64,000 nucleotides of DNA from Candidatus Uhrbacteria bacterium. GTDB lineage: Bacteria > Patescibacteriota > Patescibacteriia > UBA9934 > GWF2-40-263. Made by a program: the position numbers and the translations under genes. The notes under the pieces are model-generated. The model made no database searches. It saw only the letters and a program-made list of their open reading frames with translations, and was not told the DNA's origin. Shown piece by piece: positions 24,372 to 59,075 of the stretch (positions are counted from its first letter, which is position 1; each line of letters starts with the position of its first letter). The stretch covers positions 209,432 to 273,431 of the forward strand of contig JAPLZK010000004.1 of NCBI GenBank assembly GCA_026395055.1, read 5' to 3'.

Positions 24372-24410
24372 GAAAACCGTCACTCAAATGCGAGTGACGG
24401 TTTTATATTT
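24372..24410. terminator. bidirectional terminator aaaaccgtcactc-aaatgc-gagtgacggtttt
   Basis: Sits between the convergent DUF3048 gene and prmC. Confidence 0.65.
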
Positions 24411-25311
24411 CTGCGATTACAATGCGGTCATTTTTTTGCAGGTCTTTTTCTGTTCGTGTAACAGCTTCTGGAAAATAATGTTTAATGAGCTTCACAGACC
24501 GATCTGTTTGATCGGGATCGATTTCGATGAAGACGAATATATTTCTAGGCAGAATCTCCCGATGTTTTTTAAATTGTCGAAATAAGTCCCAGTAGGCATC
24601 TAGGCCATCCACACCCGCCACAAGCGCGCGTACGGGTTCAAAACGGACATCTGGATCAAGGATATCCATTTGTGCTGTGGTGAGATAGGGGAGGTTTGCG
24701 CAGACGATGAGGTCTTTGAATGGATAGACAGATGAAATATTTGGATTGCCGGATGCACGGATGGTTTGAAAGAGATTGATGAGTGGTTCAAGAAGTGAGC
24801 CGTGTTGAAAGTCAATGTGCTCTTCGACCTCGAATGTTTGTGCGTTTCGTTTTGCGGTGATTAACGCGGATTGGTCGATATCAACTGCAAGGACGGGGGT
24901 TTGAGTTTCTGCAGCAAGCGTTACAGCGATCGCTCCAGATCCTGTTCCGATATCCACAAAGAGTGTTTTATCTCGGTCACATGTCGAGAATACATCGAGT
25001 GCTTGTTCAATCATGACTTCTGTTGCAGGGCGAGGAATCAAGACGGAGGGATCCACAAAGAAGTCACGGCCGTAGAATCCTTTTTTGTTTATAAGGTATG
25101 CAACAGGTTCGTGTTTGAGTCGACGGTCCACCAGAATGAAGAACTTTTCTTCTTGATGTGGCTTGAGGTCATCTGCAATGTGTCCAAACAGCCATGATTT
25201 TGGGACCTCTAAAACAGACGCGAGCAAGAGTTCTGCGTCCAGCATGGGAGATTCGATCCCTACTTTCTTTAACTTATTGTTGGCCCATTGAAGCGCCTCA
25301 AGGATTGTCAT
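24403..25311 (-). CDS. prmC: release-factor glutamine N5-methyltransferase (PrmC/HemK)
   Basis: GTGSGAIAV SAM motif. NLPY substrate motif, equivalent to NPPY. Confidence 0.85.
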   Translation of the reverse strand: MTILEALQWANNKLKKVGIESPMLDAELLLASVLEVPKSWLFGHIADDLKPHQEEKFFILVDRRLKHEPVAYLINKKGFYGRDFFVDPSVLIPRPATEVMIEQALDVFSTCDRDKTLFVDIGTGSGAIAVTLAAETQTPVLAVDIDQSALITAKRNAQTFEVEEHIDFQHGSLLEPLINLFQTIRASGNPNISSVYPFKDLIVCANLPYLTTAQMDILDPDVRFEPVRALVAGVDGLDAYWDLFRQFKKHREILPRNIFVFIEIDPDQTDRSVKLIKHYFPEAVTRTEKDLQKNDRIVIAEI

Positions 25312-25339
25312 GCGTTCTACAGTATGGTATTTTCGGAAT

Positions 25340-26060
25340 TTTTACAAAAAGAAAGAGACCCGCAAGGAGTCTCGAGAAGAGAGGGGTGAAAAAGATTCCT
25401 GCGAATCCGAAGGGTTCCTGTTTTGGCGAGGTGTTGTCTTGATCGACTGAATGTTTTTTGAGGACGTCCAGTTGGTGACCGAGATGTTGACTTCGTTACT
25501 AGCAGAGAACCCTTCGGAACGCAACTTGATGTCATTGTTCTTTTGAGGGAACGGCACCAAGAAAGTGGTTAGACGAGCAAGCTCATCGTTTTGTTTTAGC
25601 GAGTTTTCAGGTTCGCTTTAACAGAGTTCGCACGATCGCGGTTCAAGTCTTGCGACTTTGGCTTGAGCATTCCATATCTTGCGACTGGGTTTTGCTTGGC
25701 GTGAACGTTGAAAGGGAACTGTTCCACTTTGGATACGATGGTAATTTTGAACATTCGTTCGGCGACAGTACTTGACCGTCATCTACGAATTGAGCTTGCA
25801 CTCTGTCCAATTTCTCACCGGGTCACCAAGCTGTAGCTGGTTCAAGTTGGTCCGGAGACCTATACGTACGCTTTCGCACACGTAGACTGGGAGTTGTCTC
25901 TCCCGATTCGTTGACCGAAGTCATTGAATCACTTGTTTGGTCATTGAAGACCCATGCAACGAGCGAGCTCGCTTGCACGTGAGAGTAATCTCTCAAGATT
26001 CGCACGACCGAAGCCGTTTGAATCGCCAGGCGTTTGTTCTTGCGAACGTCAGCTGAAGGT
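25340..26060 (-). ncRNA. candidate ~0.7-kb non-coding transcript, class unknown
   Basis: An 870-bp region with no ORF above ~90 aa in any frame. The minus strand has a TTGACG-17-TATTAT promoter at 26067-26095 and a hairpin plus U-run terminator at 25339-25372. Internal imperfect direct repeats are present. Confidence 0.3.
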
Positions 26061-26066
26061 TTTGAA

Positions 26067-26095
26067 ATAATATACGAATAAAATACGAGCGTCAA
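26067..26095 (-). promoter_or_regulatory. minus-strand sigma70-like promoter TTGACG-17-TATTAT
   Basis: -35 at 26095-26090 and -10 at 26072-26067, both read on the minus strand. Confidence 0.4.
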
Positions 26096-26135
26096 ATGGT
26101 ATCTGTGGATAACTCATCGTCTAATCTAAATTAAC

Positions 26136-26176
26136 ATAAAATAAATCACTCGAATGATCGAGTGATTTATTTTATC
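26136..26176. terminator. bidirectional terminator aaataaatcactcg-aatgat-cgagtgatttatttt
   Basis: Perfect 12-bp stem with symmetric A/T runs, 3' of the nucleotidyltransferase gene. Confidence 0.7.
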
Positions 26177-26187
26177 CGCGCAATTTT

Positions 26188-26862
26188 TTAAGAAATATTT
26201 TTTGTTTTTACGAACTCGAGTTCTTCCGGAGTTCCAATTGGATACCATTCATCTGTCAGAACGACATCGATGGGATTTTTTTCGGATCTGGTGGCGAGTG
26301 TTTGGGGTAAACCGTATTCTTCATGGACACTCCCTTCAATTTTGACGGGCTCAATCTCAAAATATGTTTGATCGAGCACATATGCACCGCAAACACGATA
26401 GCTTTTTGAGCTTGTTGACTCGACGAGACCAATAAATTTTCCATTTGCGTCGAGTTTCCCGCCGTTCATGAGATGCATCTCGGTCGGACAGAGCATGATC
26501 GAGGTGTTGTGAATCAACATCTCGTCGAGAGCCTCTTGAGAATACAAATCATCACCGTTCACGACAAGGAATCGATCGTGCAATCGATTACGGAGCAATA
26601 TCATTGCTCCGCCTGTGCCGTCGAGCGGGTCTTGTGTGACATATCGAACAGGAATGTTTCGATATTCATTGCCTATCTTCGCTTTAATTTGATCGCCTAA
26701 ATAATTCACGACAATAAAAATCTCATCGATTGCTCTTGGAAGCGCGTCGAGTGTGTGTTCAATCAGAGTTTTGTCTCCAATCGGAATAAGTGCTTTTGGC
26801 GTTGTGAGTGTGAATGGTCTGAGACGTGTTCCAAGACCAGCCGCAAGAATAACGGCCTGCAT
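26188..26862 (-). CDS. sugar-phosphate nucleotidyltransferase
   Basis: AVILAAGLGTRLRP G-x-G-T-R motif. The start is MQAVILAAG at 26862, next to the prfA stop. Confidence 0.8.
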   Translation of the reverse strand: MQAVILAAGLGTRLRPFTLTTPKALIPIGDKTLIEHTLDALPRAIDEIFIVVNYLGDQIKAKIGNEYRNIPVRYVTQDPLDGTGGAMILLRNRLHDRFLVVNGDDLYSQEALDEMLIHNTSIMLCPTEMHLMNGGKLDANGKFIGLVESTSSKSYRVCGAYVLDQTYFEIEPVKIEGSVHEEYGLPQTLATRSEKNPIDVVLTDEWYPIGTPEELEFVKTKNIS

Positions 26863-26863
26863 A

Positions 26864-27967
26864 TTAGTCTTCGTCTTCTTCATCTGTATCAGAAACAGGG
26901 GCTTCTCCAAGCAAAGAACGGATTTCTGCTTGCTTGAGATCCTCGACAAGGGTACCAAGTCCTCCGTTCATGATGCCTGGAATGTTGTGATAGTTTTTGT
27001 GGATGCGGTGATCTGTCACACGATCCTGTGGAAAATTGTAGGTGCGAATTTTTTCCGAACGATCTCCGGTTCCAATCATTCCACGACGAGATTCTTCGCG
27101 TTCTTTACGTTGACGTTCTTGTTCTTGTTCGTACAGACGCGCACGCATGATGGACATGGCACGCTCTTTGTTTTGTTTTTGGGAACGTTCGTCTTGGCAG
27201 TAAACAATAAGTCCGGTCGGAATGTGCATGATACGAATGGCAGAATACGTTGTGTTCACGCTCTGTCCACCCGCTCCGGTTGAAGTTGTTGCTTCAATTC
27301 GAAGATCTTTCAGGTCGATTTCAAAATCAACCTCTTCCAATTCTGGAAGAACGGCAACGGTTGCGGTTGAAGTATGGACGCGTCCTTGTTTTTCTGTTTC
27401 TGGTACGCGTTGAACACGATGAACTCCACTTTCAAACTTTAATTGGCTATAAACATTTTGGCCTTTCATCCCAAAAACAACTTCTTTAAATCCACCGATT
27501 TCGTTTCTACTTGCGGAAATGTGTTCAATTTTCCAGCGTTGTGTTTCTGCATACATGGTGTACATGCGCATAAGCTCTCCGGCAAAGATGGCAGATTCGT
27601 CTCCTCCTGCACCTGCACGAATTTCAACAATGACATCTTTTGCATCCATTGGATCTTGAGGAAGAAGGGCGACGAGAAGTTTTTTCTCAAGAATTGGCAC
27701 GGATGCTTCCAATAATTCAACTTCTTCTTGCATGAACGCTTTCATGTCTGCGTCGTCTGATTCTTCAAGTGCGTGTTTTGCACTTTCCAGATTTTTGAGA
27801 GCTGCTTCAAACTCTGTTCCGATTCCCATCAATTCTTTCATGCGCGCATACGCACTTCCGACTTCTTTCATGAGTTTTGGGCTCGAAAGAACCTCGGTGT
27901 CCCCGAGTCTTGTTTCGAGTTTGTGAAATTCATCACGTTTAAGTTTGAATTGGGTGAGGAGATCCAT
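26864..27967 (-). CDS. prfA: peptide chain release factor 1
   Basis: GGQSVNTT motif and RF1 domains. The start was set at the ATG at 27967 (MDLLTQF). Confidence 0.92.
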
Positions 27968-28043
27968 AGGAGATATATTATCGAAGCAATAGTAACACAA
28001 AAGCGTCTTCCAGGAACGGAGAGACGCTTTGTGAATTCAAAAG

Positions 28044-55529: not shown

Positions 55530-56168
55530 TTACACGGGCTGGAATTTTCGAATCACGGCACGAACGACTCCTTGAATAATACAGTCTTGAACGTAAATAG
55601 GATCCATGGTTTTGTTTGCGGGTTGTAAGCGAATGCGGGATGGTTCACGGTAAAATCGTTTGAGGGTTGCAAAGGCATTGTCGAGAAGAGCAACGACGAC
55701 TTCGCCGTTGCGTGGAGATGGATTGCGCTCAATGACGACGAAGTCTCCGTCTAAAATTCCGTCTTCGATCATGGATTGGCCTTTGATTTTGAGAACGTAG
55801 GAGTTTGCACCGTCTAGGACAAAGCTTGCGGGGACGGCCATGGTTTCGTTGTCGTTGATGGCTTCTATAGGTTGTCCGGCGGCGATGAGTCCCATCATGG
55901 GCAAATTCACGACATCTGCGGAAAGTCGGAAGCCTCTGTGGATAGGTTCGGCTTGGGGGACGAGTTCAATGGATCTAGCTTCGCCTTCTTCTCCGATACG
56001 GATCATGCCTTTGTCTACAAGGCTTTGGATGTGTCCATGCACGGTTGCGGAAGAGGAGAGGCGAAAGTGTTCACCGATTTCCCGGTAGGACGGGGCGTAT
56101 CCGCAGTCATCAAGGTGTTTTTTGATGAATGCGAGAACTTCGTTCTGCTTTTTTGTTAAGTTACTCAT
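55530..56168 (-). CDS. lexA: LexA repressor
   Basis: N-terminal wHTH, AG cleavage site (LIAAGQPIEA), S24 peptidase Ser and Lys (GQSM, KRF). Confidence 0.9.
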   Translation of the reverse strand: MSNLTKKQNEVLAFIKKHLDDCGYAPSYREIGEHFRLSSSATVHGHIQSLVDKGMIRIGEEGEARSIELVPQAEPIHRGFRLSADVVNLPMMGLIAAGQPIEAINDNETMAVPASFVLDGANSYVLKIKGQSMIEDGILDGDFVVIERNPSPRNGEVVVALLDNAFATLKRFYREPSRIRLQPANKTMDPIYVQDCIIQGVVRAVIRKFQPV

Positions 56169-56249: not shown

Positions 56250-56331
56250 GCAAGAAGGTGTATGTGGATAAGTCTGAATCGATAAGAAAGAGTTGGAGAT
56301 TGAGTCAAAATTTGTTACTCTGTGCGCACTT

Positions 56332-58406: not shown

Positions 58407-59075
58407 ATGAAACGTCTTTCTCTTTTTTTGTCGCTCGCGTTACTCTTGCTCGTTGGATCTGGATGTGTTAAATCAAAGGATGCATCGTCTGATGTCACCT
58501 TTAATTATCCTGACCAAAAACCAGCAGAGCAAACAGCACCCGCACCAACAACACCTGGTGCCACAACGCCCACTTCTGCTCCTCTGGAAACAACCAAACC
58601 TATGACATGGACATTCCCTGGAAAACGTTCTGAGAAAGAAATCGCTCATAAACAAATTCGTCTCACAACAGACAAAGGAGACATTGTGTTCGAACTTTTT
58701 GCAGACACAGCCCCTCTCACGGTTTCAAACTTTGTGTATCTCACAGAAGGTGGGTACTACAACGGCCTTACCTTTCATCGTCGTGAAGAAGGATTCGTAA
58801 TCCAAGGAGGAGACCCAAGTGGAAACGGAACGGGTGGTCCTGGTTACAAGTTTGCAGACGAACTTGCAGATAAATACACCTACACGCGTGGAATTGTTGC
58901 TATGGCAAACGCAGGTCCTGCAACAAACGGTTCTCAATTTTTTATCATGCTCGCAGACGCTCCATTACCAAAAGCGTATTCCATCTTTGGAAAGGTGACG
59001 TCTGGAATGGACGTTGTGGATAAAATCAAAGTTGGAGACAAAATGACAAAAGTAACGGTTGAAGACAAAAAATAG
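58407..59075 (+). CDS. ppiB: cyclophilin-type peptidyl-prolyl isomerase, lipoprotein
   Basis: Lipobox LVGSGC and cyclophilin motifs FHR...GF.IQGGD and MAN.GP.TNGSQFFI. Confidence 0.85.
   Translation: MKRLSLFLSLALLLLVGSGCVKSKDASSDVTFNYPDQKPAEQTAPAPTTPGATTPTSAPLETTKPMTWTFPGKRSEKEIAHKQIRLTTDKGDIVFELFADTAPLTVSNFVYLTEGGYYNGLTFHRREEGFVIQGGDPSGNGTGGPGYKFADELADKYTYTRGIVAMANAGPATNGSQFFIMLADAPLPKAYSIFGKVTSGMDVVDKIKVGDKMTKVTVEDKK

Follow-up and report, generated by a model that had tools for sequence, protein, structure and literature searches.

What occupies the gene-free gap that separates prmC from an NTP-transferase gene in Candidatus Uhrbacteria? We addressed this question in a stretch of 64,000 nucleotides (contig JAPLZK010000004.1), referred to below as the window, in which the gap covers 876 bp (25312–26187). 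A preliminary description of this DNA had drawn attention to the gap and had stated that it contains no open reading frame (ORF) above ~90 amino acids. The gap is real, and its largest ORF (25823–26095, minus strand) has 90 amino acids; the other ORFs have at most 72 amino acids or are spill-over from prmC. The GC content of the gap (0.45–0.51) is on par with that of the flanking genes. The minus strand from 26060 to 25346 is very probably a stand-alone gene for a structured noncoding RNA (ncRNA) of ~715 nt that belongs to a new family, and this high confidence applies to the identity of the locus and not to its mechanism. The reading of the locus given in the preliminary description is supported. 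Conservation extends to the gene boundaries, covariation supports the fold, and the locus, which is non-coding and under purifying selection, occupies one syntenic site behind a DnaA-box. The RNA family has not been described previously and is specific to Candidatus Uhrbacteria; it adds a new family to the known category of large structured bacterial RNAs. We infer a discrete, probably abundant transcript. The locus is arranged as follows.

24403–25311, minus strand: prmC, the co-oriented context gene, 34 nt beyond the U-tract of the RNA terminator
25346–26060, minus strand: predicted structured ncRNA, whole transcript of ~715 nt, as indicated by folding energy, covariation and the lack of codon periodicity
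26188–26958, minus strand: NTP-transferase gene (Pfam PF00483)
26864–28000, minus strand: prfA, the upstream neighbour of the NTP-transferase gene

Evidence for a structured RNA

The preliminary description had called for a structure prediction and a covariation analysis, and both gave a positive answer. The minimum free energy of the predicted fold was lower than that of shuffled sequences, with z = −7.0 on the minus strand and z = −5.5 on the plus strand. For the covariation analysis, the copy in the window (WIN) was aligned from promoter to terminator with those of eight related loci, L034, L001, L041, L036, L002, L003, L035, and L039 (alignment A4, group A; 69–88% identical). The structure on this alignment was started with RNAalifold and then curated by hand. 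It comprises 152 pairs with 91.4% canonical cells, compared with 86.9% in shuffles and 31–45% with slid partners. Compensatory changes were found in 38 pairs, while the shuffles gave 14.8±2.7 (0 of 500 reached 38) and the slid partners gave 4–14. Helix 9 of the curated structure is mis-registered (27% paired) and should be ignored. Within the A4 structure, 83 G·U pairs stand against 29 A·C mismatches. The sense strand of the window RNA has 11 hairpins of at least 3 bp capped by UUCG or GNRA loops, compared with 3 for the antisense strand. The G·U excess and the bias of the tetraloops to the sense strand therefore point to an RNA transcribed from the minus strand and not to a structure at the DNA level.

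The pattern of substitution is that of a non-coding sequence. Mismatches between WIN and L034 are distributed over the three positions modulo 3 as 25/30/26 in the RNA (p = 0.77) and as 23/10/119 in prmC (p = 4e-31). Three further sequence pairs behaved likewise; overall, the RNA shows no periodicity (p = 0.5–0.9), while prmC gives p ~ 1e-30. WIN and L034 differ at ~11% of the RNA positions and at 39% of the third codon positions of prmC. Because the RNA is less diverged than these third positions, it is under purifying selection.

These data also bear on the possibility, raised in the preliminary description, that the gap holds a decayed protein-coding gene or a hidden small protein gene. Open stretches of 72–90 amino acids do exist in the gap, and some frame of the homologues extends up to 136 amino acids. 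However, the three-base periodicity that is so pronounced in prmC is missing, the indels are mostly 1–2 nt, and the longest open frame varies from homologue to homologue and is not shared among them. A Pfam scan of six gap ORFs gave no match. Moreover, the compensatory pairs and the G·U excess indicate selection on the RNA. The protein-gene reading is thus largely refuted, and we regard it as hardly credible.

Promoter, DnaA-box and terminators

The signals that bracket the RNA gene are the following, in the order of transcription.

26136–26175, no strand assigned: palindrome with perfect 18-nt arms (26136–26153 and 26158–26175) and a 4-nt loop, the putative end of the upstream prfA/NTP-transferase operon
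26104–26112, minus strand: perfect DnaA-box 9-mer, TTATCCACA, 8 nt upstream of the −35 hexamer
26067–26095, minus strand: sigma-70-type promoter TTGACG-17-TATTAT from a consensus scan (10 of 12 positions), with −35 at 26095–26090 and −10 at 26072–26067
25346–25373, minus strand: intrinsic terminator GAGACUCC-UUGC-GGGUCUC plus UUUCUUUUU, conserved, with compensatory variants in L034 and L039

The scan returned four promoter-like matches in the stretch, where 3.4 are expected, which is the chance level. The promoter is credible because it is conserved in the homologues and not because of its scan score. TTGACGC is invariant in all nine group A homologues (alignment A4), and the −10 element occupies the same alignment columns in the form TAnnnT (TATTAT, TATACT, TATGAT, TATAAT, TATCCT, and TACCAT). 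The preliminary description had placed the promoter TTGACG-17-TATTAT at 26095–26067 on the minus strand, where we found it as well, conserved across the nine homologues. Transcription would start near 26060.

At the other end, the preliminary description had noted a hairpin with a U-run just before prmC. The stem of this terminator lies at 25373–25355 and is followed by TTTCTTTTT. It is conserved and covaries (helix 33 of the curated structure), with GAAGACC/GGUCUUC in L034 and GAGACUC/GAGUCUC in L039. The locus thus possesses two attributes of an independent ncRNA gene, a conserved promoter and a conserved intrinsic terminator of its own. The palindrome at 26136–26175 had been described as a 12-bp bidirectional terminator (26136–26176); the palindrome itself is real, but its perfect arms are 18 nt rather than 12 bp long. 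It is kept in L034, and other relatives have a different hairpin at the same position. It would insulate the RNA gene from the upstream operon.

The DnaA-box is invariant in nine of nine group A homologues. In all other lineages for which the promoter-side end is covered, the promoter is preceded by a DnaA-box, perfect or nearly so and of either orientation, or by an inverted pair. In group C (L011, L023, L014, and L010), a perfect inverted pair, TTATCCAC-N6-GTGGATAA, is located ~60 nt upstream of TTGACA, and L008 has a similar pair. The inverted pair of group C would also suit a dimeric helix-turn-helix regulator instead of DnaA. The sequence hallmark of a DnaA-regulated promoter, a conserved consensus 9-mer (TTATNCACA) at or near the promoter, is therefore present. 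In Bacillus subtilis, DnaA-box sites outside oriC activate or repress transcription at sda, ywlC, and yydA (PMC2533591). The resemblance lies in perfect 9-mers that are directly upstream of a promoter, intergenic, and off the origin. In contrast, the B. subtilis sites are clusters of 4–10 boxes, while the Uhrbacteria gene has one or two, its product is a large ncRNA, and its box is a putative site for the Uhrbacteria DnaA.

Since no feature of the locus is more conserved than the perfect DnaA-box, and an inverted pair occurs in some lineages, one may ask whether the region is an element acting at the DNA level, such as a datA- or DARS-like DnaA-binding locus or an origin-like region, in which the hairpins are incidental. 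However, there are one or two boxes and no cluster, and the GC skew stays positive throughout the 64-kb window. The excess of G·U pairs over A·C mismatches and the strand bias of the tetraloops indicate selection on one transcribed strand, and the region is bracketed by a conserved promoter and a covarying terminator. This explanation is very improbable. An oriC was considered separately and rejected, because the boxes are too few, the window shows no GC-skew switch, and the GC content of the gap is like that of its flanks. The uniform positive skew implies that neither an origin nor a terminus lies in the window.

Two further perfect DnaA-boxes were noticed in the window. One (56263–56271, minus strand) is located upstream of lexA (55530–56168, minus strand), whose product is a LexA homologue (Pfam LexA_DNA_bind and Peptidase_S24). 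Its arrangement, TTATCCACA-N8/9-cTTGCG-N17-TAGAAT, matches the box-to-promoter spacing of the RNA gene. It is the sole other promoter-associated perfect DnaA-box within the 64-kb window. The remaining one (59015–59023) is inside an ORF and looks like a chance occurrence. A common regulator may act on lexA and the large RNA, and the shared arrangement of the box hints at a small replication-stress regulon.

Predicted anatomy of the RNA and its family in Uhrbacteria

The predicted elements of the RNA are listed from the 5′ end to the 3′ end.

25829–26054, minus strand: Domain 1, in which P1 (26054–26049 with 25834–25829) encloses the GCAA hairpin P1a and two modules
26036–26047, minus strand: GCAA hairpin P1a, inside Domain 1
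25937–26029, minus strand: first copy of a four-hairpin module (H1 with a UUCG loop, H2, H3, and H4), scoring 83.9 bits (E = 6e-18) with covariance model R1
25842–25935, minus strand: second copy of the four-hairpin module, scoring 73.9 bits with covariance model R1
25737–25819, minus strand: P3 domain, a long hairpin of irregular shape that contains a GAGU-GCAA-GCUC hairpin (helices 12–17, several compensatory pairs)
25562–25733, minus strand: P4 domain, in which AAAGUGGA (25730–25723) pairs with CCACUUU (25568–25562) and is preceded by an invariant UCC
25569–25722, minus strand: variable insert enclosed by P4, carrying two GUCGCAAGA(U/C) mini-hairpins
25525–25561, minus strand: P5 hairpin (helices 24–25, three pairs with compensatory change)
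25400–25523, minus strand: P6, a 17-bp long-range helix (25523–25507 with 25417–25400) with a variable interior
25374–25396, minus strand: pyrimidine-rich tail AUCUUUUUCACCCCUCUCUUCUC (23 nt, 91% pyrimidine)

The module of Domain 1 is 93 nt long and is present in two tandem copies in WIN, L034, and L001 and in one copy in L002, L003, L041, L035, L036, and L039. Covariance model R1 was built from 11 module copies, among which compensatory changes are present. The direct repeats reported earlier at 25904–25929 and 25997–26024 do exist, but they are the first hairpins of the tandem modules and not simple repeats. Likewise, the two occurrences of tcttgcgact are present and represent two GCAA-tetraloop mini-hairpins on the minus strand rather than simple repeats. 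The two repeats were recovered as families D6 and D11.

P4 is invariant in group A. P6 (helix 26) is the best helix, with four covarying positions and 94.8% of its cells paired, and it is seen in the window as a perfect 12-nt inverted repeat (I3) with its arms 89 nt apart. A possible pseudoknot would pair GGUG (25827–25824) with CACC in the interior of P6 (25477–25474); one compensatory change, GUUG/CAAC in L039 and probably also in L035, points weakly to it. RNAalifold had instead proposed a closing helix between GGUG and a CACC near the 3′ end, which was rejected since it is broken in L035 and L039. The compensation at the internal CACC/CAAC site in these two loci is what weakly implies the pseudoknot.

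The 3′ end consists, in order, of GCAGGA, the tail (25396–25374), and the terminator (25373–25346). The predicted probability of being unpaired is 0.50–0.77 for the tail and 0.37–0.43 for the whole RNA, and the tail is 79–91% pyrimidine in the members analysed. Its length is 21–56 nt in group A and ~130 nt in L037; CU tracts are found in group C too, and a tail rich in pyrimidines terminates most versions of the RNA. In a single-stranded context, the motif CUCAAGC(Y)AAA recurs at 25518–25530 and 25650–25690 of the window, in L007, in group C, and in the inserts of group A, and it may be a conserved element for recognition.

The prmC relatives all come from Candidatus Uhrbacteria or Patescibacteria metagenome-assembled genomes, and they assign the window to Candidatus Uhrbacteria. 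Their gene order is rpmE, prfA, in some cases the NTP-transferase gene, the gap, and prmC, beyond which lie convergent genes encoding a DUF3048 protein and ribosomal protein L25. The close relatives all keep an ORF-poor gap of 450–2160 nt without a consistently called gene, and prmC is always the next gene downstream of the RNA and co-oriented with it. The conservation of synteny that the preliminary description had proposed to examine therefore holds, since the gap is kept at the same site across Uhrbacteria. Its statement that the locus interrupts prfA and prmC does not apply to the window, in which the NTP-transferase gene lies between prfA and the RNA, but it is correct for L006, L035, L036, and L011, which lack the NTP-transferase gene and have the RNA directly between prfA and prmC. 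The RNA is absent in at least three more distant relatives (L029, the P0120 contig, and the GW2011_GWF2 Uhrbacterium L082), in which prmC abuts the upstream gene.

With blastn and nhmmer, the gaps of the other lineages were not alignable to group A, and nhmmer found the promoter region only. Because the alignment across groups failed, the homology between groups rests on synteny and a few motifs. The other lineages have in common the position, the orientation, a DnaA-box that closely precedes a TTGAC(A/G) promoter, YCAGC at the 5′ start, and a first hairpin capped by a GNRA loop. Sense-strand tetraloop hairpins dominate there as well (16 sense and 4 antisense in L011; 17 and 3 in L081), and a CU-rich stretch often precedes a strong terminator. 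Group B keeps the UCC-P4...GGAACCC core, and its P4 has changed from AAAGUGG/CCACUUU to CUUGUGG/CCACAAG with three pairs compensated. RNAalifold structures of these groups have 299 pairs with 27 compensatory changes in group C (2–10 in slid controls) and 44 pairs with 8 in group B (0–3 in slid controls).

Family sizes, counted from the promoter up to the terminator or, if no terminator was mapped, up to the end of the gap, range over ~0.35–1.8 kb, from ~350 nt in L037 through ~1.1 kb in group C to ~1.8 kb in L081. The shortest member (L037:2043–2495, a 453-nt gap) keeps the DnaA-box promoter, the P1-closed multi-hairpin domain, and the terminator. It has a small second domain, and a near-pure C/U tract of ~130 nt with repeated YCG(U/C)UCC units replaces P3–P6. 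The largest version (L081:838–3000, a 2.16-kb gap between prfA and prmC) has a DnaA-box pair at 1122–1156 and TTGACA at 1195, followed by ~1.8 kb. Lineages differ freely in the duplication, insertion, or loss of peripheral elements. The G(A/U)C-GNRA-G(U/A)C mini-hairpins are found family-wide (22 sense, 1 antisense). The size series (~350 nt in L037, ~550–760 nt, and ~1.1–1.8 kb) constitutes a natural deletion analysis for the functional core.

The patchy distribution among Uhrbacteria and the variable size could also be expected of a mobile element, an intron or phage remnant, or a dispersed repeat. However, the syntenic site is always the same, neither the module nor the RNA has a second copy in the window or flanks, and no transposase or reverse transcriptase genes are associated with it. 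The covariance model of the module found no match elsewhere in the window or in other lineages, and blastn against phage, plasmid, and viral DNA gave no match; nor did any intron or ribozyme model match. The probability of such an origin is negligible. A 15-nt match at 2013–2027 is antisense inside an ORF of 482 amino acids and was dismissed as chance. Pattern matches in 39 viral contigs were also judged to be chance, because the hidden Markov model of the family finds none of them.

Known RNA classes and possible function

The preliminary description had recognised no known family signature, and the Rfam search that it suggested agrees with this. At the gathering score, Rfam 15 gave no match in the whole window or in 12 related loci. 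At E ≤ 10, the region 25000–26500 gave only noise matches to the AT-rich palindrome, far below the gathering scores, and at E ≤ 1 the gaps of L011, L005, L007, L009, and L012 gave no match. ARAGORN found no tRNA or tmRNA gene in the whole window. A full-text search of the literature yielded no description of the RNA. One might suspect that this RNA belongs, as a strongly diverged member, to a known family (RNase P RNA, tmRNA, SRP, 6S, OLE, GOLLD, ROOL, HEARO, or raiA), since lineages of the Candidate Phyla Radiation (CPR) are divergent and the size and style of the RNA resemble those of large ornate RNAs. However, these permissive searches of the window and of five divergent lineages were negative, the RNase P P4 and tmRNA T-arm signatures are absent by eye, and the RNA is missing from some Uhrbacteria, unlike an essential housekeeping RNA. 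We consider this explanation highly improbable. The earlier comparison with OLE, GOLLD, and ROOL is apt for the class of size and style and does not extend to membership.

OLE is similar in its size class (~600–700 nt), its multi-domain fold with many hairpins, and its stand-alone gene. OLE is reported to work as a ribonucleoprotein (RNP) scaffold of unclear biochemistry (PMC9723947, PMC12265935). This mode is similar to the one proposed below for the Uhrbacteria RNA. In contrast, the Rfam model of OLE gives no match here. OLE belongs to Bacillota (extremophiles or anaerobes) and is located next to oap genes, while the neighbours of the Uhrbacteria RNA are the prfA, NTP-transferase, prmC, DUF3048, and L25 genes without oap. 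OLE is highly conserved in sequence and length, whereas the Uhrbacteria family has an approximately five-fold range of length and is hardly alignable between lineages.

ROOL and GOLLD form RNA-only homo-oligomers (PMC12286853). Like the Uhrbacteria RNA, they are large and ornate, rich in loops of the type used for tertiary contacts, and without a known function. By analogy, the abundance of GNRA loops in the Uhrbacteria RNA would allow similar contacts. Unlike them, it matches no model, has no association with tRNA or phage, and shows a fixed prfA/prmC synteny and a DnaA-box promoter.

The 6S gene ssrS and the downstream gene ygfA form a conserved dicistronic arrangement in proteobacteria. This is comparable to the Uhrbacteria locus, as a stable ncRNA gene is located upstream of, and co-oriented with, a housekeeping enzyme gene, and expression by read-through is possible. 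However, 6S RNA is a single long hairpin of ~180 nt that mimics an open promoter, while the Uhrbacteria RNA is branched, 4–10 times larger, and gives no 6S match. With sponges of the CsrB/RsmZ type, it shares a copy number of hairpin units that differs between relatives. It differs from them in having UUCG and GNRA loops and pyrimidine-rich tail units instead of GGA, and in the lack of a CsrB/Rsm match, and no csrA-like partner was identified.

In the mechanism that we propose, the RNA would be driven by the sigma-70-type promoter with the DnaA-box 8 nt upstream of its −35 element, and transcription would stop at its own intrinsic terminator 34 nt before prmC. The long-range helices P1, UCC/GGA with P4, and P6 would close domains that bear the UUCG- and GNRA-capped hairpins, and the 3′ pyrimidine-rich tail would be less paired than the remainder. 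The level of the RNA would be set by DnaA or another reader of the TTATCCACA palindrome and hence by the replication status. prmC would be expressed through terminator read-through or a weak promoter of the leaderless type. Tentatively, and with considerable doubt, we suggest a trans-acting role in which the RNA would be a stable scaffold or sponge and would hold multiple copies of one protein or of several. This idea is based on the repeated modules, the G(A/U)C-GNRA-G(U/A)C mini-hairpins, the UUCG(N)YC tail units, and the observation that the units differ in copy number among lineages that all retain the gene. Our best functional guess, held with low confidence, is an RNP scaffold or protein sponge under the control of DnaA.

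Several points weigh against this interpretation, with regard to both the identity of the gene and its role. The alignment comprises nine related sequences only, and the shuffle control ignores their phylogeny. Part of the structure was derived by RNAalifold from this very alignment, so that the percentage paired is inflated. P1 is conserved, with 75% pairing in the MAFFT alignment, but its covariation is weak, as is that of the pseudoknot. The transcript, its ends, and its abundance are deduced from the DNA. The case for homology across groups is built on synteny, the promoter box, the P4 compensation, and the motifs GGAACCC and 5′ UCAGC, without a statistical alignment. Most members have no convincing sigma-70 promoter between the terminator and prmC, which fits cis and trans action alike. 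Finally, the scaffold or sponge idea, itself of low confidence, derives entirely from the repeat architecture, and no evidence points to a protein partner.

The relation to prmC gives rise to the main competing explanation, in which the RNA is a giant cis-acting leader or attenuator of prmC that meters read-through from the DnaA-box promoter, and the released RNA is a by-product. The RNA is always directly upstream of prmC and co-oriented with it, with or without the NTP-transferase gene, and in the window its U-tract ends only 34 nt before the prmC ATG. Most of the terminator–prmC spacers (17 members, groups A–C) contain no sigma-70-like match, and the spacer of the window has no good one. 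Where the RNA is absent, prmC directly adjoins the upstream gene, and the two are presumably co-transcribed. However, a length of 350–1800 nt with free gain and loss of domains is unlike known leaders. The terminator is strong and invariant, no conserved antiterminator pairing was found, and no riboswitch, T-box, or leader model matches. In addition, CATACT 9 nt before the prmC ATG may be a weak leaderless-type promoter of its own. We consider the leader explanation unlikely, and continue to favour a stand-alone ncRNA gene.

A bolder proposal is that the RNA founds a class with a new function, as a DnaA-controlled, modular, giant (0.35–1.8 kb), ornate CPR RNA that couples replication status to another core process. 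This is a long shot on the present evidence. Candidate roles would be a multi-copy protein store or an RNP, catalytic or assembly-forming, with a connection to translation termination (prfA/prmC). To our knowledge, no counterpart of such a DnaA-controlled class exists among the described bacterial RNAs, and bacterial ncRNAs of large size and intricate fold comprise only about a dozen known classes. These classes belong to the central machinery or are prominent open problems, such as OLE, ROOL, and GOLLD. CPR bacteria (Patescibacteria) have tiny genomes and few regulators, and their RNA biology is barely charted. The maintenance of an RNA of 0.35–1.8 kb under purifying selection in genomes of ~1 Mb implies an important job. 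The invariant DnaA-box provides a testable regulatory handle that links the RNA to the replication initiator.

Other possible targets of the RNA were considered. The tail (UCACCCCUCUCUU) resembles the 3′ end of 16S rRNA, as would an anti-Shine-Dalgarno mimic or a Shine-Dalgarno sponge. This idea was dropped as a lead because the genome barely uses Shine-Dalgarno motifs, which are found upstream of 7 of the 47 long ORFs (at least 200 amino acids, whole window) against a background of 12%. A search for mRNA targets by complementarity gave matches at the chance level only.

Several genes in the window have a TATACT-like −10 box 6–9 nt before the ATG, and prmC has CATACT-N9-ATG. The position of these boxes suggests that leaderless mRNAs are widespread. 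In L005, L035, L036, L037, and L039, a conserved pyrimidine-rich sequence, CUUUUCUGCUUUACUAC(U)UCUUAAC, directly precedes the prmC start codon, and it is shared by several lineages that have no alignable RNA bodies. It could be a promoter or leader of prmC. WIN, L034, and L001 share AAAUACCAUACUGUAGAAC in the terminator–prmC spacer instead.

The listed ORF of the NTP-transferase gene starts with TTG at 26958 and overlaps prfA by 95 nt. Its homologues begin with MQAVILAAG, which corresponds to an ATG start at ~26862 that abuts the prfA stop codon. The long form of this ORF is therefore probably an over-extension.

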